Assembly: GCA_963817955.1 (NCBI GenBank) | Contig: CAWFQK010000008.1 | Span: 1 to 64,000, forward strand | Reading direction: 5' to 3' | DNA: 64,000 nt | Source of the DNA: an uncultured Gemmatimonadaceae bacterium | GTDB taxonomy: Bacteria; Gemmatimonadota; Gemmatimonadetes; Gemmatimonadales; Gemmatimonadaceae | Part shown: in pieces, positions 18,518 through 34,691 of the stretch | How positions within the stretch are numbered: position 1 is the stretch's first letter | Layout: the number at the start of each line of letters is the position of its first letter | Notes under the pieces: generated by a model | Database searches by the model: none | What the model was told of the DNA's origin: nothing | The model's input: only the letters and a program-made list of their open reading frames with translations | Program-made: the position numbers and the translations under genes

Positions 18518-19618
18518 TCACACGATGCCGGCGCCAGACCGATAGCGTAACCGCGCGACGATTCCGCCATGTATTTCCAGCCGCTGCTCGGCCTCGCCGG
18601 ATACCTCCTCGACGAGGGCATCTTGGTCGAGCGCTCGACGCACCGCTCGTTCCGCGTCCGCTGCGTGATCGGCGAGGTATCGCGGACTGATGTACAGTGC
18701 GCCGACGCACGACAGCTCCAGCGCGCGATCGGTCGCCACCGCTCCGACGACGCCAAGTGCCCCAGCCTCCGCCTGCTCCTCGATTGCGTCGATCTGCAGG
18801 GCATCCCAGGCGTTCCGAAGCGCTGAGGCACCAGTCCTTGCCACGTCGGCGATGTCGGCCGGAGTGGCATGGACATCGAGCGACGCCAGCCGCCCCACGC
18901 GTGCGGCAACGGGCGACAACAGTCTCGCCGCGTGGGCCACGACACGGGGTATGCCACCGAGCAGAATCCATCCGTCGCGGCCGGCGAGCGCAGTCGCGCG
19001 CTCGGCAACTTCGGCGAGCATTCGCTTCATTCCTTCGCGGCGCGACCGTTGTGCCACGTCGCGTCCAGCGGTGCCCCGCGCACCGACATGAAAGCCGACG
19101 CGTGGCGAATCTCCCATGTGCGACGGTGGCTCGACCACATGATGAGCATGCAGCGTCGCGACGTGATCCAACTCGCCCCATTGATAGCAATACAGCGACG
19201 CCTTCCTCGCGTCCATCACGGCAACGATGACCGGGCGGCTCTCCTTCAACGCTCGCATGTAGGGCGCGACGCACATTCCCGTGCTCCAGACGGCCATGGT
19301 CGGCATCGGCATGGGGACACGCTCGGCGTACTGCACGGCGTCGGACGTAATGAACGCGGCCCAGCCAAGCGCCCCAATACCCGCCCCAAACGCGCCGAGC
19401 TCGCTCTCGAGCCGGCGAGCGCAGTCCGCATACTCGGCCCGCTCCTCACGAGAGGAGTCGTCAAGCCAGGTCCTGAGATCAGCCAGGGCGTGATCCAGTT
19501 GTGCGCGCCAGCTTCGTTGGACCGCGGGATCGGTCGCGGATCCATCGAGGTACACGCTCAGTACACGAGCGCCGCGGTGGGATCGTTCGAGCATGACGAG
19601 CTCGCTGTAGCTCAGCAT
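18518..19618 (-). CDS. baeRF (bacterial archaeo-eukaryotic release factor / eRF1-like) family protein
   Basis: VLSVYLD at the N-terminus, WILLGG, eRF1 domain-3-like C-terminus (ALDQDALVEEV..GGIVARLRY). Confidence 0.7.
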   Translation of the reverse strand: MLSYSELVMLERSHRGARVLSVYLDGSATDPAVQRSWRAQLDHALADLRTWLDDSSREERAEYADCARRLESELGAFGAGIGALGWAAFITSDAVQYAERVPMPMPTMAVWSTGMCVAPYMRALKESRPVIVAVMDARKASLYCYQWGELDHVATLHAHHVVEPPSHMGDSPRVGFHVGARGTAGRDVAQRSRREGMKRMLAEVAERATALAGRDGWILLGGIPRVVAHAARLLSPVAARVGRLASLDVHATPADIADVARTGASALRNAWDALQIDAIEEQAEAGALGVVGAVATDRALELSCVGALYISPRYLADHAADAERAVRRALDQDALVEEVSGEAEQRLEIHGGIVARLRYRSGAGIV

Positions 19619-19826
19619 TGGTAGCTCCGCTGGTCAATGTCGTTCGCGAACACTGAGGATCACGCAGCACATAGCACACCATTGGGTACTCGAGCCGCGC
19701 CGGCCGGCGCGCGGGAGGCGCGCGTCGTCATTTCCCCCGCGTGAGGCACCCAATTGCCCGATGGATCGGCGCCGCCTCCAGCGCAACGTGAAAAGGGAAA
19801 CGCCACGAACCCACGCGACTGAGAAC

Positions 19827-22184
19827 ATGACGACCATTCAGACCACGCCCCGCGCCCCGAGTAAGGCTGCGCCCGCCGAACGCGCTGCCAGCGCGATGAT
19901 CGTACCGTTCGCCAACGCACGACGCACGGATACGCCAACGGTCGGCGGAAAGGGCGCGAATCTCGGGGAGCTGACCGCGGCAGGCCTGCCTGTACCGCCG
20001 GGATTCATTCTCACGATCGAGGCGTACCGACAATTTTACGAACGCAACGAGATCGGTCCGCGAGTGGCTGCGGAGCTGGAGCGTATCAATCCCGACGATC
20101 CCGCGGCGTTGGACCGCAGCGCCGGCGCCCTTCGTCAATTGATCCTCGACGGCCGTGTGCCCGATGCCCTGTGTGCGGCGATCGAGTCGGCATACGAGGC
20201 GCTCGTCCGCGATCAGACGCAGAACTCCCGCGTCGCTGTCCGCTCGTCGGCGACCGCCGAAGACACGACGCAGTTCTCCTTCGCCGGCATGTTCGAGAGT
20301 TTCCTCAACGTCTCTGGTGCACCCGCGCTCCTCGAGAACGTCAAAGCGTGCTGGGCATCGACGTTCGGAGCGCGCGTGCTGTTCTATCGGATCAAACAGG
20401 GCATGTCGCCGGAGATGCCGGTGGCGGTCATCGTGCAGCGCATGGTGGATTCCGAGAAGTCGGGCGTGATGTTCACGACCGATCCGGCGACGGGAGACGC
20501 CTCGCGCATCGTGATCGAGGCCGCGTGGGGCCTGGGCGAAGCCGTGGTGCAGGGTGCCGTGACGCCTGACCGTCACGTGCTCGACAAGGCATCGCTCGCG
20601 GCCCTCGTCACGGAGATTGCGGAGAAGGAGTTCCTGCTCACGCTGGACGAAGCGAAACAAACGACCGTTCGCATCGACTTGGCTGGCGATCCGCGCGCGA
20701 AGGCGCCGGTGCTCACCGCTTCCGAGATCGAGACACTCGGTATGCTCGCACGCAAGGCCGAAACCCATTACGGCGTGCCGCAGGACATGGAGTTTGCCAT
20801 CGCGGGAGGCAAGGTGTACGTGACCCAGAGCCGCCCGATCACGACGTTGGTGGCGCATCGCGAATCGAGCGCGCCGGCGACTCATGACGCACGTGCGGTT
20901 CTCGTGCGCGGCCTGGGTGCGAGCCCGGGACTTGCCAGTGGTGCAGTTCGCGTGCTCGACTCGCCGGCCGCCGATGCCGCGATGAGGAGCGGCGAGATTC
21001 TCGTGACCCGCATGACGTCGCCCGACTGGGTTCCGATCATGCGGCGAGCCGCAGCGATCGTCACGGACGCTGGCGGGATGACGTCGCACGCGGCGATCGT
21101 TGCGCGCGAGCTCGGGTTGCCCTGCATCGTCGGCGCGCATGACGCAACCCGCGTGCTCTCGACGGGCACCATCGTGAGCGTGGATGGGACCGCGGGCACC
21201 GTCACGAGCGGTGCGCGCGAACCACAGGCGGTGGGCACGGTTGCTGTCGGCGTTCCAGCGCCGAGTGTCGCGCCGGTGACGGCTACACGACTGTACGTCA
21301 ACCTGGCCGAACCTGAACGCGCGGCGGACGTCGCAGCGCGCGATGTGGACGGCATTGGCCTCCTGCGCGCCGAGTTCATGATGGTGGAAGCGCTCGAGCA
21401 TATGCATCCACGCGAGTTCCTCGCCACGCGCAGCGCCGACGAATTCGTACGCCGCATGAGCGAAAGCCTCCGGGTGTTCGCGCGCGCGTTTACCCCCCGG
21501 CCGGTCGTCTATCGCGCGATGGATTTTCGGTCGAACGAATTTCGCAATCTCACCGGCGGTGAGGCGTACGAACCGACTGAAGCGAACCCGATGATTGGCT
21601 ATCGGGGGTGCTTCCGGTACACCCGTGAGCCGGATCTCTTCGCCCTGGAATTACGGGCGCTCGCCGATGTGCGTCGCGATCACGACAATCTTCACCTGAT
21701 GATTCCATTCGTGCGCACCGAGCACGAACTGAAGACTTGCCTTCACCTGATTGATGAAAGCGCGCTGGGTGGCGATACGCGGATGGAGCGATGGATCATG
21801 GCGGAGGTGCCGTCCGTCGTCTACTGGCTGCCGCGTTACGCCGCGCTCGGCATCACCGGTGTGTCGATCGGCTCGAACGATCTCACCCAACTCATGCTCG
21901 GGGTCGATCGCGACAGCGAGTTGTTCGGGACTCTGTATGACGAGCGCGACCCGGCTGTCCTCGACGCCATTCGCTCGATCATTACCGAGTGCCGGCAGCT
22001 TGGGCTCAGCTGCTCGATATGCGGGCAGGCGCCCTCGGTGCATCCCGACTATGCCGAGCACCTCGTGCGGTGGGGGATCGACTCGATCTCGGTGAACGTC
22101 GATGCCATCGACCGCACGCGCCACAACATCGCGGTCGCGGAACAGCGGTTCGTGCTCGAGCGAACCCGAGCCACGCCGCCGTGA
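19827..22184 (+). CDS. ppsA: Phosphoenolpyruvate synthase
   Basis: VGGKGANLGEL, VAVRSSATAED, GGMTSHAAIVARELG (phospho-His), EANPMIGYRG, SIGSNDLTQL and SICGQAPS motifs. Confidence 0.93.
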   Translation: MTTIQTTPRAPSKAAPAERAASAMIVPFANARRTDTPTVGGKGANLGELTAAGLPVPPGFILTIEAYRQFYERNEIGPRVAAELERINPDDPAALDRSAGALRQLILDGRVPDALCAAIESAYEALVRDQTQNSRVAVRSSATAEDTTQFSFAGMFESFLNVSGAPALLENVKACWASTFGARVLFYRIKQGMSPEMPVAVIVQRMVDSEKSGVMFTTDPATGDASRIVIEAAWGLGEAVVQGAVTPDRHVLDKASLAALVTEIAEKEFLLTLDEAKQTTVRIDLAGDPRAKAPVLTASEIETLGMLARKAETHYGVPQDMEFAIAGGKVYVTQSRPITTLVAHRESSAPATHDARAVLVRGLGASPGLASGAVRVLDSPAADAAMRSGEILVTRMTSPDWVPIMRRAAAIVTDAGGMTSHAAIVARELGLPCIVGAHDATRVLSTGTIVSVDGTAGTVTSGAREPQAVGTVAVGVPAPSVAPVTATRLYVNLAEPERAADVAARDVDGIGLLRAEFMMVEALEHMHPREFLATRSADEFVRRMSESLRVFARAFTPRPVVYRAMDFRSNEFRNLTGGEAYEPTEANPMIGYRGCFRYTREPDLFALELRALADVRRDHDNLHLMIPFVRTEHELKTCLHLIDESALGGDTRMERWIMAEVPSVVYWLPRYAALGITGVSIGSNDLTQLMLGVDRDSELFGTLYDERDPAVLDAIRSIITECRQLGLSCSICGQAPSVHPDYAEHLVRWGIDSISVNVDAIDRTRHNIAVAEQRFVLERTRATPP

Positions 22185-22185
22185 G

Positions 22186-23190
22186 TCAATGCGCGTTGCT
22201 CATCCGTGAGTCCGGTGGACGAACGCGCCACGCCGCCAGCGCCGCGGTCGACTGCGCGCGGCGTAGGCGCGACAGCGCCTTTTCCTTGATCTGGCGCACG
22301 CGCTCGCGCGTGATCCCCATGAGGGCCCCGATCTCCTCGAGCGTCATCGGCTCGCTCTCGTCGAGCCCGAAGTAGAGCCGCAGGATCTTCGCCTCGCGCT
22401 CCTTCAAGTGCGACAGCGCTTCCGTGATCGACTCGGTGAGCGCCTTCTCGAACGTCTGCTCATCCGGTGTCAGGTTGACCGTATCGGGCAGATAATCGAG
22501 AAGATTGTTGTCCTCGCCAGGCGTCAATGGTGCATCGAGCGACAGATGCGTCTGGGAGATCGCCATGGTCGTGGCGACGTCTTCCTCGCTGATGTCCATG
22601 CCCTGCGCGATCTCCGCGTGTGTCGCGTCGCGCCCCAGCTCCTGGAGGAGGATGTTGGCGCGCTTGCCGATGCGATACAGCGTGCCCGCGCGATTGAGCG
22701 GCACGCGCACGATGCGCGACTGCTCGGCCAGCGCCTGGAGAATGGCCTGACGGATCCACCAGACCGCATAGGAGATGAACTTGATCCCCTTGGTTTCGTC
22801 GAATTTGTGCGCCGCGCGGATCAGACCGAGGTTGCCCTCGTTGATCAAGTCCGAGAGCGATACGCCTTGATTCTGATACTTCTTTGCCACCGAAACGACG
22901 AAGCGCAAATTGGAGCAGACGAGTGCGTCGATGGCAGCGGGGTCACCAGCGTGGAGACGCTCCGCGAGTGCGACTTCCTGCTCCCGCGTGAGCAGGTCGT
23001 ACGCCCGAATCTCGTCGAGATATTTCGACAACGGGTCTTGCTCGGCTCCGGAGCGCCGATGGCGGACGGTTGCGGCGCGCATGCTGCCTCCAGCATCATT
23101 CGACGGACGGAAGCTCGCCAGCGCGCGGTTCCGCGGCAGTCGGGGCGAACCCGAGACGCCATCGGGCAAATACGGACTTGGAGTTGTCAT
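22186..23190 (-). CDS. RNA polymerase sigma-70 factor, RpoD/SigA-like without region 1.1
   Basis: SNLRFVVSVAKKY, DLINEGNLGL, KFISYAVWWIRQAI and TLEEIG..TRERVRQI motifs. ATG 23190 overlaps the upstream stop; alternative start near 23082. Confidence 0.92.
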   Translation of the reverse strand: MTTPSPYLPDGVSGSPRLPRNRALASFRPSNDAGGSMRAATVRHRRSGAEQDPLSKYLDEIRAYDLLTREQEVALAERLHAGDPAAIDALVCSNLRFVVSVAKKYQNQGVSLSDLINEGNLGLIRAAHKFDETKGIKFISYAVWWIRQAILQALAEQSRIVRVPLNRAGTLYRIGKRANILLQELGRDATHAEIAQGMDISEEDVATTMAISQTHLSLDAPLTPGEDNNLLDYLPDTVNLTPDEQTFEKALTESITEALSHLKEREAKILRLYFGLDESEPMTLEEIGALMGITRERVRQIKEKALSRLRRAQSTAALAAWRVRPPDSRMSNAH

Positions 23191-24386
23191 TGTGCGGTCG
23201 TGCGGTGAAGAAGGCTGCCGCGTCCGCTGATGATGCGGGCGAACCGTATCCAGGCCGCGAGGTCGCGGGCATGCGTCCGCGCGCGCGTCATGAGTGGCGG
23301 GGTTGAGCCTTCGCGAAATACTTCTTTGTATCGCTCCGTCACGTGCCATGGGCGATCTGCACCGTGTCCAGAGTGTCGAGGCCGTATGCCCGCACTCCAC
23401 AGCAGCTCGGCGAGCTGTACCGAGGGGCACAGATCGAATACGGCTGACACGATGTACGCTCGCTCGAGCGCCTTGGTAACGAGTCGTGGTTGTGACGGAC
23501 GGAGCGCGGTGAGCACCTCCACCGGGACTGCGGCATTCACGAGTTTGCGTGACAGGGCGAGCGTCCAATACGCGGAGGTCGCCGCATGCGTCCGGCGCGC
23601 GAGGGGGATGAAGGCATCCCAATCGATGTCGCGCGTGGCCGCGAGAGTCGCGACGTCTCGGACGGCGCGGCCGATGCCGTGCACCAGCGAATGCGACCAG
23701 GCGAAGTGCACACAGAGATGCAGCAGTTGATGGAGATCAGACGGCACGTACGCGCGCGAGCTTCCAACACGCACCTCCGTCGCATCGTGCCACACGTCCG
23801 ACTCCGAGATGGCGAATGGCCCGGGATAGGGCATCATCGACCGGTGTATCTCGAGCACGATGCGCCCACCCGCAGGATCGACGAGCGGCTTCAGGTGATG
23901 GTACGCGGCGTGAAAGTCCGCCCCACCGTCCTGTTCGAAGCCCCAGCCAAGAACTCGCATGCGCGTCCATGCGTGAAGCGCCTGCTCGGGCGCCACGAGG
24001 ACGTCGAGATCGCTCATCGGCCGGCGCGCGAAGGACGGATACACGGAGTGCGCCAACGCGGCGCCCTTGAGCAGGAGCGACGGAATGCCTTCAGCGGCGA
24101 GCTGCGTGACAATCTGCTCGAGTGTGGCGCGCGTCGCCGCCATCCGAAACTCGATCACCGCGGTGCGGCGGCGCACGGCGCCTTCCAGGTCACGCGGCAT
24201 CGCATCGACCCGGCCACGCAACCCGTACCACATCACGGACAACATCTTTTCACGCTCGGCGATGTGCGCGAGCAGCTGCCAGTTGATGTCCGAGTTGGCG
24301 AGCGCCGCGAGCGGCGCCGTGTCGCCATCATCACGCGGTTTGATCGCCAGAAAGAATAGCTGTGCCTCTGGGGGAAGCAGCGTCAC
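23187..24386 (-). CDS. Nucleotidyltransferase family protein (NTP_transf_5-like)
   Basis: LLLKGAALAHSVY...RPMSDLDVLV, VLEIH and LLHLCVH motifs. GTG start at 24386. Confidence 0.85.
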   Translation of the reverse strand: MTLLPPEAQLFFLAIKPRDDGDTAPLAALANSDINWQLLAHIAEREKMLSVMWYGLRGRVDAMPRDLEGAVRRRTAVIEFRMAATRATLEQIVTQLAAEGIPSLLLKGAALAHSVYPSFARRPMSDLDVLVAPEQALHAWTRMRVLGWGFEQDGGADFHAAYHHLKPLVDPAGGRIVLEIHRSMMPYPGPFAISESDVWHDATEVRVGSSRAYVPSDLHQLLHLCVHFAWSHSLVHGIGRAVRDVATLAATRDIDWDAFIPLARRTHAATSAYWTLALSRKLVNAAVPVEVLTALRPSQPRLVTKALERAYIVSAVFDLCPSVQLAELLWSAGIRPRHSGHGADRPWHVTERYKEVFREGSTPPLMTRARTHARDLAAWIRFARIISGRGSLLHRTTAQ

Positions 24387-24394
24387 GGCTCTCG

Positions 24395-25195
24395 TCAGTA
24401 TTGAGTGAGCGTGCCCTGCGCGCGTGCGCGCCGGAGCGCAAACGATACCGCGACCGCTCCAAGCACGATGAGCGCCGCTGCGGTGCCCGCGAGCGCGACG
24501 AGATCCGGCGCCACCGCGGCAAGCGATGCGTTTTGCAGCAGCACGCGGCGGAGGGCGCGCAGGCCGTGGCTCAGCGGCAACACCGCGGAAATCGAGCGGA
24601 GCCAGGCCGGATTGGCGCTCGTCGGGTAATACACGCCGCCGAGCAATCCACTGATCATCAAGATCGCTTTCGGGAGCGGACCCGCCGTGCGGAACGCCAG
24701 GATCATGGCCGCGCCGAGCACACCCAATGGAAGGTGTGCAGCCACGATGAGGCCCAGGATCGCGATTGCGGGCAGCACTCGTCCGGGGATGATCGTGGCG
24801 CCGAGGAGTGACGCCGCGCCGACGAGTACGGCGGCACGTATCGCGGCAAGAACGAGGTCGAACGCATTCAGGCCTACGAGTAGCTCGATGAGCGACGTGG
24901 GTGTTGACAGGAGCGCCTCGAACACGCCGCTGTTGATCCGCTCGGCCACGGCCACGGGCAGCGCGTTCACCGCGACCGAGACCAGCGTGAACGCGGCAAG
25001 CCCCACCACGAGAAAGCCGAATGCGCTGCCGCCTTCCGTCTTGATGGAGCCGGCCATCACCGGTTGCACGGCTCCGGCTATGAAGTACAGCGGCACGACG
25101 CTCACGAGAATGCCGGTCATCGAGATGAGCGTCTGGACTCGATAGCTCCTCATCATTTGCCAATGCGCACGCATCAGCGCCAGGACGCGTGTCAT
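24395..25195 (-). CDS. ABC-2 type transporter permease
   Basis: ERINSGVFEALLSTP, LLGGVYYP and LPLSHGLRALR motifs; several TM segments. ATG 25195 is coupled to the ATPase stop. Confidence 0.88.
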   Translation of the reverse strand: MTRVLALMRAHWQMMRSYRVQTLISMTGILVSVVPLYFIAGAVQPVMAGSIKTEGGSAFGFLVVGLAAFTLVSVAVNALPVAVAERINSGVFEALLSTPTSLIELLVGLNAFDLVLAAIRAAVLVGAASLLGATIIPGRVLPAIAILGLIVAAHLPLGVLGAAMILAFRTAGPLPKAILMISGLLGGVYYPTSANPAWLRSISAVLPLSHGLRALRRVLLQNASLAAVAPDLVALAGTAAALIVLGAVAVSFALRRARAQGTLTQY

Positions 25196-26223
25196 GCGAC
25201 GCGCCCTCGTTCGACCAGACGTTCCACGAGATCGGCCAGTGACAGCGGGACGCGCGCAAATTCGGCGACGCGCACGCCGGTCGTCACCAACCGGTGTACG
25301 ATCGCGGTGGTGTTGGCGGGCGTGCCGTCGATCTCTCCTTCGAGCGACGTCCAGCCCGAGCCGATGTCGTCCGCTTCGGCGAACGTGGCCCAGCCGCACG
25401 AGGCGAGCGCCGCGCGCGCACGCTCATGGTCGGGCGCGGCGATGATTGCCCGGTATCGGTGCGCTCCGGCGAGATCGGCGAGTTCGCGCGTCGTGCCGGT
25501 CGCGACGACGCGGCCCTGGTCGAGCACGGCGAGACGATCGCAGAGCTCGAACGCCTCGTCCGCGTCGTGGGTGGCGAGGAGTACGGTGCAGCCCTGGCGG
25601 CCGACGACGTCTTCCTGAAGAAACCGGCGGAAGTCACGCGCGCTCACAGGATCGAGACTACGCGTCGGCTCGTCGAGCAGCAGCACCGACGGTTGTGACA
25701 ATAGCGCGCGCGCAATCAGCAGACGCTGCTTCATTCCCGACGAATAGGTCGCCACCATGCGGTCGCGGGCCTGTGTCAACCCGACGAGGTCGAGGAGCAT
25801 GCGCGCTCGATGAGCGGCGTCCGCGGTGTTGAGCCCGTACAGCGCGGCGAACAGCTGCAGGTTCTCCGGTCCGCTCAGCCGCCAGTAGAGACTGCGCTCG
25901 TCGGCGATCACGGGCGTGAGCGTCTGTCGCACGCGGCTCGCCTCAGCGACGACGTCGGCACCCGCGACGCTGACGCGGCCGGCGTCCGGGAGAACGACGG
26001 TCGAGAGGATCTTGAACAGCGTTGTCTTTCCGGCGCCGTTCGGGCCAAGCAGACCGAAGAACTCGCCGCGGCGCACGTGCAGCGAGACGCCGCGCAAGAC
26101 ATCAACGTATCGATGATCGAATGGGTGGCGGAGCGTCTGGCTCATGGACCGTCGCACCGCGAACCGCTTCATCAGCCCGTCGACGCTCACGAGCGCATCG
26201 TTCGAGGCGTCGTGGATCGTCAT
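25192..26223 (-). CDS. ABC transporter ATP-binding protein
   Basis: GPNGAGKTT, YSSGMKQR, LLLDEPT and ATHD motifs. Confidence 0.93.
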   Translation of the reverse strand: MTIHDASNDALVSVDGLMKRFAVRRSMSQTLRHPFDHRYVDVLRGVSLHVRRGEFFGLLGPNGAGKTTLFKILSTVVLPDAGRVSVAGADVVAEASRVRQTLTPVIADERSLYWRLSGPENLQLFAALYGLNTADAAHRARMLLDLVGLTQARDRMVATYSSGMKQRLLIARALLSQPSVLLLDEPTRSLDPVSARDFRRFLQEDVVGRQGCTVLLATHDADEAFELCDRLAVLDQGRVVATGTTRELADLAGAHRYRAIIAAPDHERARAALASCGWATFAEADDIGSGWTSLEGEIDGTPANTTAIVHRLVTTGVRVAEFARVPLSLADLVERLVERGRVA

Positions 26224-27173
26224 GATGACGCCGCGACGCCGGCCAACTCGGCGGCGTGCCACGACCACAAGGTGTCCGTCAGCTCATCGAGCCGATCGTA
26301 GTCGCGTGGAAGCTCGAGACGATAGACGGGGACCTGGGTGGCCAACGCCGAGAGCCGCTGGAGCAGCGTGGCTCGCAACGCTCGTCCAAGCAACGCGCCA
26401 ATCTTTGCCTGTCCGAGCAGCGCGAGCGTTGCGGGAACGTAGGGCAACCGTTCGCGACGGATGGTGCGGACGTTGTCTGGCCTGAAGGGCGCGAGCAGGT
26501 AGACGGCGGCGAACGGAACGGGCGATGCTGCATGACGGGTTGCGTCCCAGCCAATTTGCAGTTTGGGCGACGAGCCGTCGCCGCGAGCCGATGCGGATAC
26601 CCGGGCGACATGCTCGGCGGAGTCGTTCCAGAGTTGCACGACGGGCACACTCGGCAGCACGTGCGGGGCGTCGCCCGGCGTGACCGCGACGAGATCGTCA
26701 GCCAGCAACCGCCCGCCACGGTCGACGAGCGCTGCGGCCGTGGTGGACTTGCCGTGAAACTTCGGGGCAAGAAAAGCGATCGCCTCGTCGCCCACCTCAA
26801 CGGCGCTTCCATGCAGCGTTGTGATGCCTTCCAGCTCGAGACAGAGCGCGAACACGCGTCCGAGGACGTCCTTGCGCACCGAGTCGATATCCGGGTCGGC
26901 CGACGGGGTCCAGTCGATACGACGGCCGTCATTGGAGATGGCGAATGTACCGGTGTCGTCGAAGGCCAGGCGTAGCGAGTCCGCGCTCTTGTACAGCGTC
27001 ACCATGACGTTGGCCTCGACACGCTCGGACCCGAGCCACTCCAGCTCGGGTGGCGCGGGGGTGTCGGCGACGCGCGTGAAATGCCACTGCGGGTGTCGAG
27101 CCACGCAGGGCGTGAGCTCAGTGAATGTGAGATCGGAGCGAAGCACTCCGCCGAACACACGATAGTCAGGCAT
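26220..27173 (-). CDS. HPr-kinase-like P-loop kinase (lasso peptide kinase, PadeK/PsmK type)
   Basis: LHGSAV..IAFLAPKFHGKSTT..LLADD motifs; located in the lasso cluster. Confidence 0.8.
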   Translation of the reverse strand: MPDYRVFGGVLRSDLTFTELTPCVARHPQWHFTRVADTPAPPELEWLGSERVEANVMVTLYKSADSLRLAFDDTGTFAISNDGRRIDWTPSADPDIDSVRKDVLGRVFALCLELEGITTLHGSAVEVGDEAIAFLAPKFHGKSTTAAALVDRGGRLLADDLVAVTPGDAPHVLPSVPVVQLWNDSAEHVARVSASARGDGSSPKLQIGWDATRHAASPVPFAAVYLLAPFRPDNVRTIRRERLPYVPATLALLGQAKIGALLGRALRATLLQRLSALATQVPVYRLELPRDYDRLDELTDTLWSWHAAELAGVAASS

Positions 27174-27191
27174 GAGAGGGGGGCGGGTGCT

Positions 27192-27223
27192 GCGGACGAC
27201 GCCGGCAAGCCGACGTCGTCCGC
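27192..27223 (-). terminator. Strong stem-loop 3' of the lasso precursor (CUUG loop)
   Basis: Minus-strand GCGGACGACGUCGG-CUUG-CCGGCGUCGUCCGC with one G-U pair and no U-tract. Confidence 0.6.
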
Positions 27224-27231
27224 CGAATTGA

Positions 27232-27363
27232 TTAGGAGCGGGCGCCCAACGGACCATCGAGGAAGCCACTGCCGAGGATGCCGCCGTCCCCGTTCGCGCC
27301 GAAACCGACCAAGGTGAGCTCGCGCAGCGAGCCGAAACGCTGGACTTCTGGTTTCTGATACAT
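27232..27363 (-). CDS. Lasso peptide precursor (43 aa): MYQKPEVQRFGSLRELTL | VGFGANGDGGILGSGFLDGPLGARS
   Basis: Translated by hand. RBS GGAG; leader YxxPxVxxxGxxxxxT with Thr at -2; Asp at core position 8; lies between the cyclase and kinase genes. Confidence 0.88.
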   Translation of the reverse strand: MYQKPEVQRFGSLRELTLVGFGANGDGGILGSGFLDGPLGARS

Positions 27364-27374
27364 AAACACTCCAG

Positions 27375-29348
27375 TCAACGTTCACGGGCGACTGGCCCGC
27401 ACAGTTCACGGCCGTCTGCCGCGAAGTCTTCGCGAGTGCTCGGCTCGCGCCCGGCGATCGTCGCCGACCGTGTTTCGAGCCCTCGCAGCCAAAATTCAAC
27501 TTTCATCACATTGAAGAGATTGACCCGCAGGAATTCGTCGCCTTCGCCCGCGCAGACGCGATCCGCCTCGGCGCGGAGCTTCGCCGGCTCGACCATCCCG
27601 AGCTCGGCGACCAGGAGGGGTGCCGCGAACATGCGCGACACGAGTCCGGGGTAGGCCTCGCGCATCCGAAGCCGGGAAAACCCAATGGTGGATCCCGTGC
27701 GATACGACCGCCGTTCCAGCACACGGGGCGGCAGAAGGCCCTGCATCGACTGCCGCAGGAGTGTCTTCGTGTCGTACGTGCTCGCGCGCTCGTGGATCGG
27801 ACGCGAGAGCGCAAACTCCACCACTCGGCGATCGAGCAACGGGGACCGGTTCTCGACGCCTTCCTGGAGCAGCGGCCCCCGCATGTACGCCGCGCCCCAA
27901 CTCCAGATGGGCAGCGTGAGAAACAGCAGGCTTTCCGCGTGAGCGAGACTTGCCGTGCGCACTCCACGGAGGAGCGTCAGATCGCGTTCGCGTATCGCGT
28001 GGGCGCTGACGAACGAAGGCTGCATCCACGGCGCCACGTGACGCTCCAGGTAGTGCCGCGGAATATCCCTGCGTGCCATGACATCCACGGCGTCCATGAA
28101 ACGGTCCGGCAGCAATGGCGCGACGCCGAGCCGCAGGAAATGCCGCCACCCGCGACCGCGTGCGCGCGTGAGGCGTACGGCGTCGATCCAACGGCCACTG
28201 CGGAGGAGGTCGGCCAGTACGATGTCCGATACCTGGAACAGTTGGTCGCCGCCGCATCCGTCGAGGGACACGCGAGCGCCGGTGGCACGCGTGGCACGCG
28301 CCAATGCGCGATTCCAGAGTTCATACAAATGAGCCGGCGGCTCGTCGGATTCGGCGGCGCGCTGTTCCAGCGCGTCGAAGAGCGGAATGTCCGCGCTGGC
28401 CAGCCACTGTACCTTGGCACCCCAGAATGCCGCGACGAGATCGATCAACTCGTCTTCGCGTCCGGGATCGTCCTCTGGATAGCTGATCGACACCGGACGA
28501 AGGCGCGAACGATCGAGCGGATCGAGCGACTGTTGGCCAGCGGCAAACACCGCGGTGGAATCCCACCCGCCACTCATCCAGACCGTCGAACGGCCTGAGC
28601 CGATGCGGTCGGATACGGCCGTGCAGATCAACTCAGTGAGGGCAACGCGCGCGTCCTTCTCGTTCATCGGGTTGGCAGCGGGCGCCAGCGGTGGCCGCCA
28701 CACCCGCTCGATGCGCATGCGATCGCCCTCGGCAATGAGCACATGGGCCGGCGGGACGGCCTCCACACCGTCGTACGCCGTCTCGCCGCCGAGGGCCCAC
28801 GGGAGACCCGCGACCTGCGCACCGAGTGTGGCGAGATTCAAGGCCGTGCCGCGCCCGGCGAGTTCGGCGAGTGCGCGCGCTGATGACGCGACGGCCGGAC
28901 CGCCGCATTCGGTGTAGAACAATGGGCGCAAGCCGGTTCCGTCGCGCGCGGCCAACAGGCGACGGCGAGCGAGATCCCAAATCACGAATGCGTAATCACC
29001 GTTGAGTTGATCGGTGAGACGATCCCCCCAGGCGCGGTACGCCGCAGCGATGAGATGCGTGGGCGTGCTGCCGGTCGGACGCACACCGGCCGCGGCGAGG
29101 GCGGCGCGGAGCGATTGGAGATCATAGAGCGTGGCATCCGCGGCAACGACCACCTGATGGCCATGCAGAATCGTAGAACCGCCGCTGTACGCCTCGTCCG
29201 TCTCCCACGTCTTGCGCGTCAGGACGATCGTCACATCATGATTCGACCAGGAGTCGCCAACGTCGCCGCCGAGAAACCCGAGACAGCGGATGGCGGGCCG
29301 GAGTCGGCTCGGCGAAACGCGTTGGGTACTCGCCAGGAATCCGCTCAT
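27375..29348 (-). CDS. Lasso peptide cyclase (asparagine-synthase-like, C protein)
   Basis: MSG start without the catalytic Cys of AsnB. LNGDYAFVIWD, ARDGTGLRPLFY, MSGGWDSTAV, GCGGDQLF and RSPLLDRRVVEF motifs. Confidence 0.88.
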   Translation of the reverse strand: MSGFLASTQRVSPSRLRPAIRCLGFLGGDVGDSWSNHDVTIVLTRKTWETDEAYSGGSTILHGHQVVVAADATLYDLQSLRAALAAAGVRPTGSTPTHLIAAAYRAWGDRLTDQLNGDYAFVIWDLARRRLLAARDGTGLRPLFYTECGGPAVASSARALAELAGRGTALNLATLGAQVAGLPWALGGETAYDGVEAVPPAHVLIAEGDRMRIERVWRPPLAPAANPMNEKDARVALTELICTAVSDRIGSGRSTVWMSGGWDSTAVFAAGQQSLDPLDRSRLRPVSISYPEDDPGREDELIDLVAAFWGAKVQWLASADIPLFDALEQRAAESDEPPAHLYELWNRALARATRATGARVSLDGCGGDQLFQVSDIVLADLLRSGRWIDAVRLTRARGRGWRHFLRLGVAPLLPDRFMDAVDVMARRDIPRHYLERHVAPWMQPSFVSAHAIRERDLTLLRGVRTASLAHAESLLFLTLPIWSWGAAYMRGPLLQEGVENRSPLLDRRVVEFALSRPIHERASTYDTKTLLRQSMQGLLPPRVLERRSYRTGSTIGFSRLRMREAYPGLVSRMFAAPLLVAELGMVEPAKLRAEADRVCAGEGDEFLRVNLFNVMKVEFWLRGLETRSATIAGREPSTREDFAADGRELCGPVARER

Positions 29349-29809
29349 TGGGACAGTGCCGAGAAGTCGTGCAATGGGACGAAGCGCGCCACCCGCGAGG
29401 GATCGTCGCCGATGACACGGCCGCCCAACTCGATCCACGCATGCGCAAGCAGCGTGTCGCAATGGCGCTGGACACCAACGCGCACGGCGGCCGCTTCCAC
29501 ACCGGCGCGCTGGAGGAGTTGCTCGAGCGCGATTGCACGGACGAGGCAGGTTGGGCGAAAGAGCCCGAACCGCGCGGCACGGTCAACCGCCGTAGCCATG
29601 CGAGTGATCCAATGCACATCGCTGAGCCGCGGTGCCGTGTCCGGGGGTGCGACAGGGCGCAGCAGTTGGCCGCGCGGCCGTCGACGTATGGTCCAGAGGG
29701 CGGACAGTAGCATCCCTTGCGCGGCCGCGAGGTCGAGCACTTCCCTGAGAGGAAGTGCCAACAGTTGCCGCGTGCGGTGGGCGACGGCCCGCGATCGCCG
29801 TGCGTTCAC
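29345..29809 (-). CDS. Lasso peptide B2 leader peptidase (transglutaminase-like)
   Basis: TCLVRAIAL ... VRVGV ... AHAWIE Cys/His motif. Confidence 0.9.
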   Translation of the reverse strand: MNARRSRAVAHRTRQLLALPLREVLDLAAAQGMLLSALWTIRRRPRGQLLRPVAPPDTAPRLSDVHWITRMATAVDRAARFGLFRPTCLVRAIALEQLLQRAGVEAAAVRVGVQRHCDTLLAHAWIELGGRVIGDDPSRVARFVPLHDFSALSQ

Positions 29810-30081
29810 TCGGCCTCGACGACGAGCCGGTCGTCGTGAAGACGCTCGAGCAGTGCGATCACGTCCTCACGGATCGCCATTGCGTCAACGTCAGGATATT
29901 CCGCTGACAACGTCGAGCACAGATCGTCGAGCTCCATGCAATGGGGCGGCAGCAACTGCCAGACGCGCGCACCGACGGTGTTCAATCCGAAATAGATCTC
30001 GTCTTGCGTGTGAAGCAGGACTGCGCCGTCCGCGACAGACTGGTACATGACTGCGGGGTGGGGCGATGGAAGCATTTGCAT
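29806..30081 (-). CDS. PqqD-family RiPP recognition element (lasso B1)
   Basis: AVLL...YFGLNTVGARVWQLL...LSAEYPDV..IREDVIALLERL; about 90 aa. Confidence 0.9.
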   Translation of the reverse strand: MQMLPSPHPAVMYQSVADGAVLLHTQDEIYFGLNTVGARVWQLLPPHCMELDDLCSTLSAEYPDVDAMAIREDVIALLERLHDDRLVVEAE

Positions 30082-30149
30082 GATCGCGTCGTGAAGGTGC
30101 GGGTCCGGATCGCCGAGCGAGTCGCTTGCCGGCTGCTGGCCCATGTGAA

Positions 30150-30165
30150 GGCAATCGCCATTCCG
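30150..30165 (-). promoter_or_regulatory. Candidate sigma-54 -24/-12 promoter for the lasso operon
   Basis: Minus strand CGGAATGGCGATTGCC (GG-N10-GC with TTGC), about 70 nt upstream of the RRE start. Confidence 0.3.
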
Positions 30166-30488
30166 AACGCGGCGCGCGTGCCGCTGGTGCAGCAACTCGG
30201 TGTGGGCGCGCGGGTTAGCGTGGAACCGCGTGGCGTAGCAGGGTGGCGCGTTAGCGCCGGCAGTCGCGCGCATGCCGCACAACTGTGGCGCGAAGTCCGC
30301 ATGCGGTCGACAGCGGACGCGGCATTAGAGATATACTATGGTGTCTGCCGACGCGCCGCAGGACGTTGGGACCGCGTCAATTAGCGGCGCCTCCGCCAAT
30401 CGCACCGCGGCCCGCGCGGGACTTGCATGGCGCCCATGGCAGCAGGGCCGCGGGTTCGCGGTGCGCCTCTCTTCCCGGACACGTCATC

Positions 30489-31877
30489 ATGAAACAACAA
30501 TTGCTTGCGCGGATCGACCACCGCACCGCTGTGGTCGGTGTCATTGGTCTCGGATATGTTGGACTGCCGCTCGCAGTCGAGTTCGCCAAGGCGGGGTTCC
30601 CGGTCATCGGCTACGACGTCAACGCCGGGGTGGTGGAAGCACTCATGACGGGCGAATCACACATACAGGATGTGCCGAGCTCAGAGATCGCAGCCCTCGT
30701 GCGGAGCGGCCGCTTCGTCGCGACGACCGACGACTCGGCGTTGAGTGCCGCCGATGCCATCGCCATCGCCGTGCCCACGCCGCTCGTCAAGACGCGTGAT
30801 CCCGACATGCAGTACGTCGAGGCGGCGGCTCGTACCATCGCGGCTAACGCGCATCCCGGGTTGTTGGTGGTGCTGGAAAGCACCACCTACCCAGGCACGA
30901 CGCGCGAGCTGTTGCAGCCGATGCTCGAACGGCTCGGGTATGGGGTGGGGGTGGACGTGTTCCTGGCGTTCAGTCCGGAGCGTGTCGATCCGGGCAATGC
31001 CGTGTGGCAGACGAAGAACACTCCCAAGGTGATCGGCGGGGTGACGCCAGCGTGTTGCGACGTGGCGTGCGCGCTCTACTCGAAAGCGATCGATACGTTG
31101 GTGGCCGTCTCCAGTCCAGAAGCTGCGGAGCTCGCGAAGTTGCTGGAAAACACGTTCCGAAGCGTGAACATCGGGCTCGCGAACGAGATGGCGATCGTGT
31201 GCGATAAGCTTGGCGTGGACGTGTGGGAAGTGATCAATGCGGCGGCAACCAAGCCCTTCGGTTTCATGAGATTCACGCCCGGCCCTGGCATCGGCGGCCA
31301 CTGCATTCCACTCGATCCCCACTATCTCGCCTGGAAGATGAGAACACTCAACTATAAGACGCGATTCATAGACCTCGCGAGCGAGATCAACAGCCAGATG
31401 CCAGCGTTCGTCGTGGAGAAGGTGGCGCGCGCGCTCAACGATGATGAAAAGGCGGTGAAGGGAAGCCGTATCCTCGTTGTCGGCGTTGCCTACAAGGCGG
31501 ACATCGATGACCTCCGCGAAAGTCCGGCGCTCGACGTATTTCGTTTGTTGGAAGAGCGTGGCGCGCTGGTGGAGTATCACGATCCGTTCGTGCCGATCAT
31601 TCGCGAAGATGGCTACGTACGCCGCTCGGTCGCGTTGACCCCCGAAGTGCTGGAGGCGGCGGATGCCGTGGTGATCGTGACCGATCATCGCGTCATCGAC
31701 TATCAATTGCTTCGTGATCACGCGGCGATCGTGGTCGATAGCCGGAATGCCATGGCCGCCACCGTGCCGACGAATGCACGCGTGGTATCACTCTGCGCAC
31801 GGGTGCGAACCGCATCTGCGCGCGAACCCGTCGTGGCAGGAGTCGGAATGAACGGCGAAGACGTCTGGACGGAATAG
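30489..31877 (+). CDS. UDP-N-acetylhexosamine 6-dehydrogenase (WbpA/WecC family)
   Basis: GLGYVGLPLA, ESTTYPGTT, SPERVDPG, KLLENTFR, GIGGHCIP and DDLRESPA motifs. Confidence 0.93.
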   Translation: MKQQLLARIDHRTAVVGVIGLGYVGLPLAVEFAKAGFPVIGYDVNAGVVEALMTGESHIQDVPSSEIAALVRSGRFVATTDDSALSAADAIAIAVPTPLVKTRDPDMQYVEAAARTIAANAHPGLLVVLESTTYPGTTRELLQPMLERLGYGVGVDVFLAFSPERVDPGNAVWQTKNTPKVIGGVTPACCDVACALYSKAIDTLVAVSSPEAAELAKLLENTFRSVNIGLANEMAIVCDKLGVDVWEVINAAATKPFGFMRFTPGPGIGGHCIPLDPHYLAWKMRTLNYKTRFIDLASEINSQMPAFVVEKVARALNDDEKAVKGSRILVVGVAYKADIDDLRESPALDVFRLLEERGALVEYHDPFVPIIREDGYVRRSVALTPEVLEAADAVVIVTDHRVIDYQLLRDHAAIVVDSRNAMAATVPTNARVVSLCARVRTASAREPVVAGVGMNGEDVWTE

Positions 31878-32065
31878 TCGCGTGTAGTGTCCGGGCCACA
31901 CCGTGTTGTGGGTGAGCCACGACGGTGTGCGCTCGTACCGCCGATTGCCGCCGCGTACCATGCATGGTGCCATCAGCTTAGCACCTGGGTCCCAAGTCGC
32001 TCGCCCTGGCATGACCGCTGCCAAACGCTTGCATCGGATGCTCGTTCGTCCAACGCGGAGTCTGT

Positions 32066-33286
32066 GTGAACGTGAACGCCACTGCAACGATCGCGACGGT
32101 TCTCGCGATAGGGCTCCTGCCCGTCGCGCTCCTCCTGGTGCTTCCGCTGATCTCGGAGGCCTGTAGCCTCGTGGTGCTCGGTATGGCAGCACTGAGGCCC
32201 GGCGCGCCGGCGCGCCGCGTGGTGCCGCGGCAACGCCTTCTGGTGCTCGTGGCCGCCCACAACGAGGAACTGCTGATTGGCGACGCGGTGCGGTCCATGG
32301 TCGCCATGCATAAGCGGATCTGCGACTACGACCTCGTCGTCGTCTCGGACAACAGCAGCGATCGAACGGCCGAGCTCGCGGCCAGTGCCGGCGCACGGGT
32401 GCTCGAGCGCTTCGACACGGTGCGCCGCGGTAAGCCGTGGGCGCTGCAGTGGGCCATGGAGCGATTGCCCGTGTGCGAGTATGACGGTGTGGTGATCGTC
32501 GATGCGGACACGATCGTCGATCCAGACTTCGCGGACGCGTTCGCGCGCCACGGCCCGTTGCGCGGCAAAGCCGTGCAATCGTACTGCGCGATTTCGAATG
32601 TGGAGGATTCCTGGCTGACCGTGCTCGGCGGCCTGCTCGTATCCCTGCGGTATGACGGACAGTACGCGCTGAAGCGGCGGGTCGGGTTGAACTGTCCGAT
32701 CGGCAATGGATGGTGTCTCGGCACCGATCTTCTGGCAAAGGGCGGCTGGGCTCCGGAGTCGCTCACCGAGACGTGGGAGCTGTACGCGCGCTACACCACG
32801 ATTGGTGCACGAGTGGACTTCGCGGCAGATGCTGTCATGCGCGGCCAGGAAGCACATACGCTGGCGGAGGGCGCGATCCAGCGCCGCCGGTGGCAAGCGG
32901 GAAAGCTCGTCGTGTTCTCGCGCTATGGATGGAAGCTGCTGACGAGCTCGATGATCGGATGGCGCCAGAAGCTCGATGCCTTTGGCGAGTTGGCGGCGCC
33001 CGGCCCGGTCTTGCACGCGGCCGTCGCTGCGCCGCTCGCGGTGGCGCTCGCGCTGGCCCCGGGCCGCGTTCCGCACGTCGTCGCCGGCCTGTTTGCCGCA
33101 TCACTGCTCCCGACCATTCTCTGGACGGTGGGGACATGGTACCGGCAACCGCAGCGCGCGCGATTGCTCATGGCGCTGGCGCACATCCCTGTCTACGCCG
33201 CCTGGCGGCTGGTGGTTGGCGTGCAGGCATTCGGAACCGCGCGCCGCGGTGTCTGGCACCGTTCACCCAGACATATATCGGCATAG
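32066..33286 (+). CDS. Glycosyltransferase family 2
   Basis: AAHNEE, DNSSD, GKPWAL, VDAD and QRRRW motifs; TM segments. Confidence 0.88.
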   Translation: MNVNATATIATVLAIGLLPVALLLVLPLISEACSLVVLGMAALRPGAPARRVVPRQRLLVLVAAHNEELLIGDAVRSMVAMHKRICDYDLVVVSDNSSDRTAELAASAGARVLERFDTVRRGKPWALQWAMERLPVCEYDGVVIVDADTIVDPDFADAFARHGPLRGKAVQSYCAISNVEDSWLTVLGGLLVSLRYDGQYALKRRVGLNCPIGNGWCLGTDLLAKGGWAPESLTETWELYARYTTIGARVDFAADAVMRGQEAHTLAEGAIQRRRWQAGKLVVFSRYGWKLLTSSMIGWRQKLDAFGELAAPGPVLHAAVAAPLAVALALAPGRVPHVVAGLFAASLLPTILWTVGTWYRQPQRARLLMALAHIPVYAAWRLVVGVQAFGTARRGVWHRSPRHISA

Positions 33287-33296
33287 AGGAACTGAC

Positions 33297-34691
33297 GTGC
33301 GCACTCCGCTTGCTGTGGCGGTACGCGGCGACGACGCCGCCCCCGAAACTCGTGTCCTGTCTACCGCGGTGGCGGTTGGCATGCCGCGGCTCGCCGGTCA
33401 TGTGAGGCGGCGCCGCGAGGCAGTCCGCCGAATACGCTACCGGCCCGATGCGCTCTTGTGGGCGCTCGCGTTCATGAACGTCACCTATGTGTGGCGTCTG
33501 CCGAGCATTGTATCGGTACTCAAGCCGCTCCGCCTCGCCCTCGTCAGTGGGGCGCTGGCGCTTTGCCTGTTCCTGCTCGATCGCAGTCCGCGTCGCCGTG
33601 TAGTCGATCTCCCGATGACGCCCGTGCGACTCGTCGCCGCGTTCGTCGGGTTGATGATACTATCAACGCCGGCCGGGCTCTATCCCACGCATAGCGCCCA
33701 GTATCTGGTCCAGACCATCCTGCCCGCGTTGCTGTTGATGATCATGATTGCCGCGTCGATGCGGTCGCTCGCGGACATAGAGTGGTTCGCCATGGTGAAC
33801 ATGGTGGCGGCCGGAGGATACTGCTTGTTCGTGCTGTGGGTATTTCGTGTCGGCCGAGAGGGGCGGTTGGCAGAGCTGATCTACTATGATGGCAACGACC
33901 TTGCCTTGCACATGGTCGCGACGCTGCCGCTGACGGCGTACTTCCTGACGCGCGGCCAGCGGTGGACACGACGGCTGGTGGCCGGCCTATGTGCGCCGCT
34001 GTTTCTGCTGTTGCTCGTCCGAACGGGATCGCGCGGGGCCTTCGTCGGCCTCACCGTGGTCACCGCGAACATCGCGCTCTTCTATCGCGGATTCAGCCGC
34101 GTCAAACGGATGGCAGCCGTGACGTTCATCGCGATCGCGTTCGTCATTCTTGGCGGCGCCACCTATTTCTCCAAGATCCAGACGATCTTCAACCCGACCG
34201 CCGATTACAACTGGAGCGGTCAATCGCCCACCGGACGCCTGGAGATTTGGAAGCGCGGCTTCGGCTATCTGGCCCAGCGGCCACTGCTCGGGGTCGGCAT
34301 CAACAACTTCGAGCGCGCGGAGGGCAATCTGTCTGCCATGGGGCGAGATGCGCAGGCGCGCGGCCGCCCCTTCAAGTGGTCGGTGGCGCACAATTCATAT
34401 CTCGAGACCGCTACAGAATCGGGCATCGCAGCATTGGTGGTCTTTCTGGCTCTGTTCGCGACGACGTTCCAGTTGTTGCGCCGGATCACGCGCACTATGG
34501 GAGGTCTGCCCTTTATCGCGCGCGAGCATGTGCTCGCGCAAATACTCGGGGCGTCGCTGCTGGGATATCTCGTCTGTGCGTTCTTCCTGTCGGCCGAATA
34601 CTTCACGTATCCGTATGTTCTGCTCGGGCTGGCCCTGGCCCTCTACCGAACGTCGTTCCCCAACGCGCGCGTCGTCAGGCGGTCCCGATGA
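33297..34691 (+). CDS. O-antigen ligase / Wzy polymerase family protein
   Basis: Multi-TM protein with DGNDLA, TGSRGAFVG, GRLEIW..G..PLLGVG and AHNSYLE motifs. GTG start after GAGGA. Confidence 0.85.
   Translation: MRTPLAVAVRGDDAAPETRVLSTAVAVGMPRLAGHVRRRREAVRRIRYRPDALLWALAFMNVTYVWRLPSIVSVLKPLRLALVSGALALCLFLLDRSPRRRVVDLPMTPVRLVAAFVGLMILSTPAGLYPTHSAQYLVQTILPALLLMIMIAASMRSLADIEWFAMVNMVAAGGYCLFVLWVFRVGREGRLAELIYYDGNDLALHMVATLPLTAYFLTRGQRWTRRLVAGLCAPLFLLLLVRTGSRGAFVGLTVVTANIALFYRGFSRVKRMAAVTFIAIAFVILGGATYFSKIQTIFNPTADYNWSGQSPTGRLEIWKRGFGYLAQRPLLGVGINNFERAEGNLSAMGRDAQARGRPFKWSVAHNSYLETATESGIAALVVFLALFATTFQLLRRITRTMGGLPFIAREHVLAQILGASLLGYLVCAFFLSAEYFTYPYVLLGLALALYRTSFPNARVVRRSR

Follow-up and report, generated by a model that had tools for sequence, protein, structure and literature searches.

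Lasso peptides are prized as antibiotics and because they make very stable scaffolds. In the literature searched, few characterised members carry a phosphate or phosphate-sugar tail, namely paeninodin, the ThcoA and SyanA products, and pseudomycoidin. The paeninodin cluster of Paenibacillus dendritiformis and the kinases PadeK, ThcoK and SyanK are described in a review, according to which phosphorylation of paeninodin precedes leader removal. The pseudomycoidin cluster of Bacillus pseudomycoides is described as psmC, A, K, B1, B2, N and D (Zyubko et al. 2019, PMC6993621), and according to the same report neither paeninodin nor pseudomycoidin showed antibacterial activity. A further cluster, bsf of Bradymonas sediminis, holds A, B1, B2, C, D, K and N (Duan et al. 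2023, PMC10368454), and linear polyphosphorylated peptide (LPP) clusters have been described from Bacillota (Nat Commun 2026, PMC13381572). Here we analyse a stretch of 64,000 nt (64 kb) from an uncultured Gemmatimonadaceae bacterium (GenBank assembly GCA_963817955.1, contig CAWFQK010000008.1), called the window throughout and numbered by its own positions, and in it a gene cluster that had been predicted from the sequence alone to be a complete lasso peptide cluster. The cluster is genuine, complete and uncharacterised, and its kind (paeninodin/pseudomycoidin/bsf) is already known, including outside Firmicutes.

Eight open reading frames (ORFs), tightly packed or overlapping, lie head to tail on the minus strand at 23187-30081 (6.9 kb, one precursor). 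Pfam and NCBIfam family scans, with scores judged against the curated cut-offs, place there all eight members of the gene set originally predicted, in the order B1-B2-C-A-K-D1-D2-N. The features are as follows:

29806..30081, minus strand: B1, stand-alone recognition element for peptides that the ribosome makes and that are modified after translation (RiPPs), PqqD family; 91 aa from the ATG at 30081; PF05402, E 3.4e-15, 56.5 bits (cut-off 23.4).
29345..29809, minus strand: B2, transglutaminase-like leader peptidase; 154 aa; PF13471, 1.7e-20, 73.5 bits; NF033537 (lasso_biosyn_B2), 58.9 bits (cut-off 33).
27375..29351, minus strand: C, lasso cyclase resembling Asn synthetase; ATG at 29351, 658 aa; PF00733, 1.2e-24, 88 bits, above cut-off; GATase_7, 9.8e-20.
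27232..27363, minus strand: A, 43-aa precursor with an 18-aa leader and a 25-aa core; NF033521 (lasso_leader_L3), 24 bits (cut-off 19).
27192..27223, minus strand: stem-loop, a 4-nt loop on a 14-pair stem (13 Watson-Crick pairs, one G-U).
26220..27173, minus strand: K, HPr-kinase-like peptide kinase; 317 aa; PF07475, 1.8e-5, 24.8 bits (under the cut-off of 33.3); TIGR04352, 7.5e-9 (under cut-off).
25192..26223, minus strand: D1, ATP-binding cassette (ABC) exporter ATPase, DrrA-like; 343 aa; PF00005, 1.7e-29; TIGR01188 (drrA), 3e-71 (under cut-off).
24395..25192, minus strand: D2, ABC-2 type permease; 265 aa; PF01061, 1.6e-12; PF12698, 1.3e-9.
23187..24386, minus strand: N, PF14907 nucleotidyltransferase; 399 aa from a probable GTG start at 24386; PF14907, 3.6e-43.

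The lasso biosynthetic cluster is complete, with every class-defining protein family present. B1, which was scanned from 30087, two codons 5' of its ATG, scored 45 bits against NF033530 (lasso_PqqD), under the cut-off of 70. The top NCBIfam model for the cyclase was the lasso isopeptide cyclase NF033535 (5.3e-52, 177 bits; under this narrow model's cut-off of 525), and an SGGWDS PP-loop motif stands in its translation; the B2 translation offers candidate Cys, His and Asp residues. At the gene junctions, the B1 stop and B2 start overlap in GTGA, the kinase/ATPase and ATPase/permease pairs overlap by their coordinates (the D1 start lying over the kinase stop), and the first plausible N start is a GTG 8 nt from the permease stop. 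Between the cyclase stop and the precursor ATG lie 11 nt, which include a GGAG 7 nt before that ATG, where a ribosome-binding site had been predicted. These overlapping or very short junctions argue for a single operon.

In gene content the cluster equals the psm and bsf clusters as published, and it differs in gene order, in its split ABC-2 exporter, in the Arg-Ser end of the precursor, in the predicted hydrophobic ring start and in phylum. Comparison with psm and with the described kinases was made by published descriptions of genes and motifs. On this footing the cluster resembles psm in its split B1/B2, its cyclase, its HPrK-like kinase with an Asp-Asp pair (essential in PsmK), its PF14907-type nucleotidyltransferase with a DxD motif, its Ser-ending precursor and its ABC exporter. 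Unlike psm, it has another gene order, a DrrA-like ATPase and ABC-2 permease instead of the single-gene psmD, an unrelated core with a predicted Val1-Asp8 ring where pseudomycoidin has Ala1-Glu9, and a host from another phylum. With paeninodin it shares an HPrK-like kinase with a His-Lys-Asp-Asp motif and the conserved C-terminal Ser of the precursor, whereas the paeninodin cluster is described as being without an N gene (PMC6993621). The same gene set, a Gram-negative host, the YxxPxL spacing and a predicted ring from position 1 to Asp8 link it to bsf, in which, however, Ile stands at -2 and Ser3 is phosphorylated, as against Thr at -2 and a terminal Ser here. LPP clusters share a recognition element, a kinase, related tailoring enzymes and a YxxPx leader motif, but are described with no cyclase and with a signal-peptidase-I-like protease; the cyclase and B2 peptidase found here rule out that identity. 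The original prediction had matched the gene set to paeninodin/pseudomycoidin-type clusters described from Firmicutes. The match of type stands, while the restriction to Firmicutes does not, for clusters with K and N genes are also reported from Proteobacteria (Sphingobium yanoikuyae; review) and Bradymonadales (PMC10368454).

The precursor at 27232-27363 reads exactly as quoted in the original prediction. It had been called a gene missed by the ORF track, which is true of that track but not in general, since the exact 43-aa peptide is already recorded as a called protein in a public protein collection; 17 close relatives there are unnamed or labelled 'hypothetical protein'. Its leader carries Tyr2, Pro5, Val7 (replacing Leu), Gly11 and Thr17, that is Tyr(-17), Pro(-14), Val(-12) and Thr(-2), so that the proposed YxxP..G..T pattern is present. 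The rules given in the bsf paper are Tyr/Pro/Leu at -17/-14/-12 and, normally, Thr at -2 (PMC10368454), and both the spacing and Thr(-2) place the cut after Leu18. The core then starts at Val19 of the precursor (Val1), comprises 25 residues, has Asp8 and ends in Arg24-Ser25; the leader/core boundary, core length and Asp8 of the original prediction hold with this start. Both the YxxPx(L/V) leader with Thr(-2) and an acidic residue at core position 7-9 are therefore found in the precursor. The product is predicted to be a class II lasso because the core is without Cys. In contrast to this Cys-free peptide, 61 of the 71 related cores described below (loci L034-L113) have either two Cys (39 cores) or three (22), from which most family members would be disulfide-bearing.

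The strongest evidence that the precursor ORF is real is comparative and comes from two surveys. A kinase search over 401 same-phylum genomes, including the source genome (G000) and four flagged unpublished (G157, G057, G182 and G097), gave a homologue at E <= 1e-5 in 90 of them, or 89 of the 400 others, spread over 51 of 147 genera; by hand count, 51 of the other genomes score E <= 1e-35. The family is thus found in roughly a fifth of sampled Gemmatimonadota genomes. A short ORF with the same leader lies in 22 of 29 loci from this search (1.5-kb flanks), one of the 22 being from the unpublished G157. A second scan, of the kinase alignment against one genome per species, yielded 80 loci; its pattern was built from the Gemmatimonadota clade and has no bearing on other phyla. 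Almost all 80 are titled as metagenome-assembled genomes (MAGs) of Gemmatimonadaceae, Gemmatimonadales, Longimicrobiales or Gemmatimonadota, in agreement with the phylum originally proposed for the source. At least one precursor-type ORF occurs in 73 of the 80 loci, giving 71 distinct complete peptides, and the precursor is conserved beside related clusters. In the window, a loose form of the leader pattern has three matches in the six frames and falls in a short ORF at the precursor only; at the sensitivity used, the genome as a whole shows a single precursor and a single lasso-type cyclase. This sole short-ORF match, together with the recurrence of the same leader in the related loci, excludes a chance origin of the precursor ORF.

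Thr(-2) is found in 71 of 71 peptides, and all 71 have the same spacing between Tyr and the cut, whereas the cores are otherwise hypervariable and range from 17 to 41 residues. A conserved leader joined to a variable core is the usual signature of RiPP precursors. In the closest locus, L034, all eight genes occur in the same order with 62-75% protein identity, and the precursor is 86% identical. The order B1-B2-C-K-D1-D2-N is whole in 38 of the 80 loci, 57 of the 68 loci with enough flank have N, and K lies directly 3' of A in most. Within the close subfamily formed by the 17 relatives in the protein collection, the ring and the next eleven residues are conserved and variation is confined to the last stretch before Arg-Ser. 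Judged by these loci, the cluster belongs to a family that is large in its phylum and is no one-off.

The start of the ring calls for separate consideration. Leu and Trp ring starts are known, from citrulassin and fusilassin. Among the 71 peptides, the counts at core position 1 are Ile 25, Val 17, Leu 12, Ala 8 and Gly 5, so that Ile, Val and Leu account for 54; this predicted hydrophobic ring N-terminus is the one unusual feature of the family. An Asp or Glu stands at core position 8 in 60 peptides, at position 9 in nine, at positions 7 and 9 in one and at none of these in one (70/71 with an acidic residue at position 7, 8 or 9). Two observations weigh against a Val start. The residues that a 2025 paper gives as seen by experiment at the head of the ring are Gly, Cys, Ser and Ala ('such as'), to which it adds Asn as a new one; Val is absent from its observed residues. 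By hand count, Gly is found at core position 2 in 64 of the 71 peptides. A literature search for a precedent of Val or Ile at ring position 1 returned no statement either way.

A later cut, or trimming, could accordingly give a mature peptide that starts at Gly2 of the predicted core, with 24 residues and a 7-membered Gly1-Asp7 ring. Besides the 64 peptides just mentioned, five more have Gly at position 1; two near-identical core types (those of L075 and L073) differ only by an extra Ala before that Gly; Gly is the classic ring N-terminus according to the 2025 paper; and a 7-residue ring is inside the allowed range of 7-9 (PMC10368454). We nevertheless regard this as rather improbable, because Thr(-2) and Tyr(-17), both published recognition elements (PMC10368454), fit only the Val1 start, because the Tyr-to-cut distance does not vary across the family and because a Val, Ile or Leu start gives a uniform ring size of 8 in 60 of the 71 peptides. 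The calculated monoisotopic masses are 2272.124 Da for the lasso starting at Val1 (core minus H2O) and 2173.055 Da for the alternative Gly-start lasso. For the Val1 form, the linear core comes to 2290.134 Da, the lasso bearing one or two phosphates to 2352.090 or 2432.056 Da, and the lasso bearing a phosphate plus one or two hexoses to 2514.143 or 2676.196 Da.

With the Val1-Asp8 ring retained, threading has to be considered. The core is Gly-rich (9 of 25 residues) and its tail has few bulky residues (Phe16, Leu17, Leu21 and Arg24), and unmodified pseudomycoidin is reported not to be threaded (PMC6993621); both speak against a simple threaded lasso. The ring might therefore form on an unthreaded branched-cyclic product, or on one threaded only when a C-terminal phosphate and sugar serve as plug. 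We hold this to be unlikely, if the least unlikely of the alternatives, given that the close subfamily keeps the stretch around Gly-Ser-Gly-Phe/Tyr-Leu-Asp-Gly, as expected of a defined loop and plug region.

Some related loci depart from the general pattern. The cores encoded in L048, L052 and L076 are rich in His (6-7 residues, interspersed with Gly, Phe and Trp), which suggests a metal-binding variant; no cyclase match was found within the fetched flank in L052 and L076, and the L048 cyclase lies downstream of the exporter. In a large subgroup (for example L069, L082, L085-L087, L095, L098-L103, L107 and L111), precursors run 1-5 residues past the usual Gly/Pro-Ser position and end in another Ser in some, and in Gly, Val or Thr in others, which implies trimming or an internal phosphorylation site. 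L055 and L056 hold B1-B2-K-D1-D2-N with neither a cyclase match nor a same-leader precursor in the fetched DNA, where contig ends limit the view. L109 is a locus in a MAG labelled Gammaproteobacteria, either a transferred cluster or a mis-binned contig.

We then considered the tailoring enzymes. In a 20-sequence alignment of the kinase, H121, K142 (within GKST), D159 and D160 are invariant; these residues match the His-Lys-Asp-Asp motif described in a review as conserved and essential in lasso-tailoring kinases, and the D158/D159 pair reported as essential in PsmK (PMC6993621). The kinase family profile found HPrK/P chains in the PDB at 2.8e-5, and the predicted kinase model (pLDDT 90.7) matched phosphoenolpyruvate carboxykinase (PEPCK) and HPrK/P catalytic domains in Foldseek (1kkl_B, E 4.8e-7, TM 0.62 on target). 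Direct Pfam and NCBIfam scores of the kinase are under the curated cut-offs and count against this assignment; the putative HPrK/PEPCK-type identity is drawn from its motif, its fold and its context. Run against 1.84 billion proteins, the profile shows the kinase family to be large: 1,394 cluster representatives match at E <= 1e-30, and at E <= 1e-10 the number is 16,192. In N, K107, G108, D126 and D128 are invariant in 19 relatives, and its model (pLDDT 90.8) matched MenT1, LnuA, ANT(2'')-Ia and FKRP in Foldseek, pointing to a Pol-beta nucleotidyltransferase fold. The DxD motif, D126-x-D128, parallels D134/D136, which are essential in PsmN, and the ANT(2'')-Ia match is likewise as reported for PsmN (PMC6993621). 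PsmN is described as needed for the addition of one or two hexoses to the phosphate (PMC6993621); that it is the sugar transferase itself is unsettled in that report and in the review, which weakens the case for glycosylation by N. At the sequence level, the marks of a phospho-lasso cluster are present in the kinase motif and the Arg-Ser end of the precursor, and that of the pseudomycoidin type in the clustered PF14907 nucleotidyltransferase with DxD.

The terminal residue is Ser in 57 of the 71 peptides, with an Arg-Ser end in 43, and Arg before the terminal Ser in most family members sets the family apart from the paeninodin kind of Firmicutes or Proteobacteria. Characterised lasso kinases act on the linear precursor, whose C-terminal Ser they phosphorylate (PMC6993621; review). 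Three facts argue against Ser25 as the site: BsfK phosphorylates Ser3 and not the terminal Ser (PMC10368454), Ser14 is conserved in the close subfamily and offers an alternative, and 14 of the 71 peptides end in a residue other than Ser though the kinase is encoded alongside. K and N could thus have a different target, be it a residue other than Ser25 (Ser14, for instance) or a substrate other than this peptide, or could serve self-protection. This seems to us quite improbable, since a C-terminal Ser, mostly as Arg-Ser, is kept in cores that are otherwise hypervariable, since the terminal Ser is the site in the characterised systems other than bsf, and since K directly follows A in most loci.

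Behind the precursor gene, the stem-loop starts 9 nt 3' of the stop codon. The 81-nt stretch has a free energy of -32.7 kcal/mol (z -3.27), and none of 200 shuffles folds as well. Among the 77 relatives' precursors, 73 have an uninterrupted stem of at least 8 pairs within 80 nt on the 3' side, with differing sequences, and 60 have z below -2 against mononucleotide shuffles. The hairpin here is followed by no U-tract, was not called by the terminator scan and is not a consensus intrinsic terminator. We infer that its probable effect is to protect the transcript over the precursor or to attenuate transcription, raising precursor over downstream enzyme message.

Taken together, the data make it likely that the lasso-peptide operon is functional and belongs to the phosphorylated (paeninodin/pseudomycoidin/bsf) kind. 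By analogy with these systems, the product is most likely a 25-residue Val1-Asp8 class II lasso peptide, phosphorylated on Ser25, possibly glycosylated and then exported. The 43-aa precursor would be translated just behind the cyclase gene, and the hairpin, by stabilising its message or partly stopping transcription, would leave more precursor than downstream enzyme message. B1 would bind the leader through YxxPx(L/V); by precedent, the kinase would phosphorylate the terminal Ser of the linear precursor; and B2 would cleave after Leu18, with Thr at -2. The cyclase would then join the Val1 amino group to the Asp8 side chain, closing an 8-residue ring through which the 17-residue tail is threaded. 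The PF14907 enzyme would add a further group on the phosphate, by precedent one or two hexoses, and the two-gene ABC-2 exporter would pump the product out. In this scheme we infer the chemical steps, the cleavage site and the threading, whereas the genes, motifs, folds and conservation of precursor and hairpin are observations. The biological role of such a peptide would probably be competition or signalling.

The opposite case is a cluster that is silent or decaying and makes no product. A sigma-70 consensus promoter scan of the region found 0 sites, at or below the shuffle expectation, and the bsf cluster, the sole Gram-negative cluster with K and N attempted in the literature searched, gave no product in any of five hosts, no mature product being obtained (PMC10368454); both detract from a functional operon. 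Moreover, two genomes of the same genus have no kinase match, and their best cyclase is at 30% identity, so that the cluster is accessory and dispensable. These genomes carry an orthologue (77-84% identity) of the sigma-70 family gene next to the cluster, and 1.5 kb on each side of it showed no similarity to window positions 19000-33500 beyond the sigma gene. Set against this are eight open frames, intact catalytic motifs and coupled start and stop codons. Promoters of the E. coli type are probably foreign to the source organism, and the empty promoter scan accordingly carries little weight. The terminator scan of the region gave one terminator-like site, inside the cyclase gene (28331-28343), again at or below the shuffle expectation. 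A silent or decaying cluster is in our view very improbable, and we retain the functional phospho-lasso operon as the preferred reading.

The flanks are unrelated to the cluster. Downstream lie a sigma-70 family gene and then a phosphoenolpyruvate-utilising enzyme; upstream is a divergent sugar-nucleotide dehydrogenase with a glycan cluster. The sigma-70 family gene (22186-23190, minus strand, 334 aa, regions 1.2, 2, 3 and 4) has an ATG that overlaps the N stop in ATGA and may be co-transcribed with the lasso cluster; it was rejected as a cluster member, as a homologue lies near the cluster in only two of the 80 related loci (L036 and L097). The glycan cluster (30285-34691, plus strand), divergent from the lasso operon, encodes a UDP-glucose/GDP-mannose dehydrogenase family protein, a family-2 glycosyltransferase and a Wzy_C/O-antigen-ligase-like protein, and the dehydrogenase is found upstream of the closest locus, L034, as well (82% identity). 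Farther off, at 18518-19618 on the minus strand, a 366-aa protein matches PF18854, the bacterial archaeo-eukaryotic release factor family 10 (2.4e-10). A look-up of sequencing runs listed no RNA set for the stretch, and only three soil-metagenome DNA runs, all from one study, contain small parts of it.

A literature search on lasso peptides and Gemmatimonadota and on the kinase and nucleotidyltransferase, mostly of titles and abstract openings and without supplements, found no characterised member from the phylum; one Gemmatimonadota-related paper only counts lasso clusters in 29 marine MAGs. The cluster adds a clean, complete and compact example from a soil phylum with almost no natural-product chemistry. 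It is ordinary in its logic and moderately interesting as an entry to a large unexplored family, which, with its near-invariant leader and hypervariable cores, suits systematic expression with one enzyme set. Tentatively, and with somewhat less than even confidence, we propose that the Val/Ile/Leu ring start is real in this peptide and in most of the Gemmatimonadota family, that the isopeptide bond forms on a bulky, mostly beta-branched N-terminus, and that the terminal Arg-Ser phosphate, with or without sugar, is the plug that keeps the Gly-rich tail threaded, so that the phylum would have its own ring chemistry and locking strategy. For the biology of the organism, this is an ordinary accessory secondary-metabolite cluster. 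For the family, a Val, Ile or Leu ring start, if true, would mean that lasso cyclases accept a wider range of substrates than is known, and the phylum would hold a large untouched family of phospho-lasso peptides.

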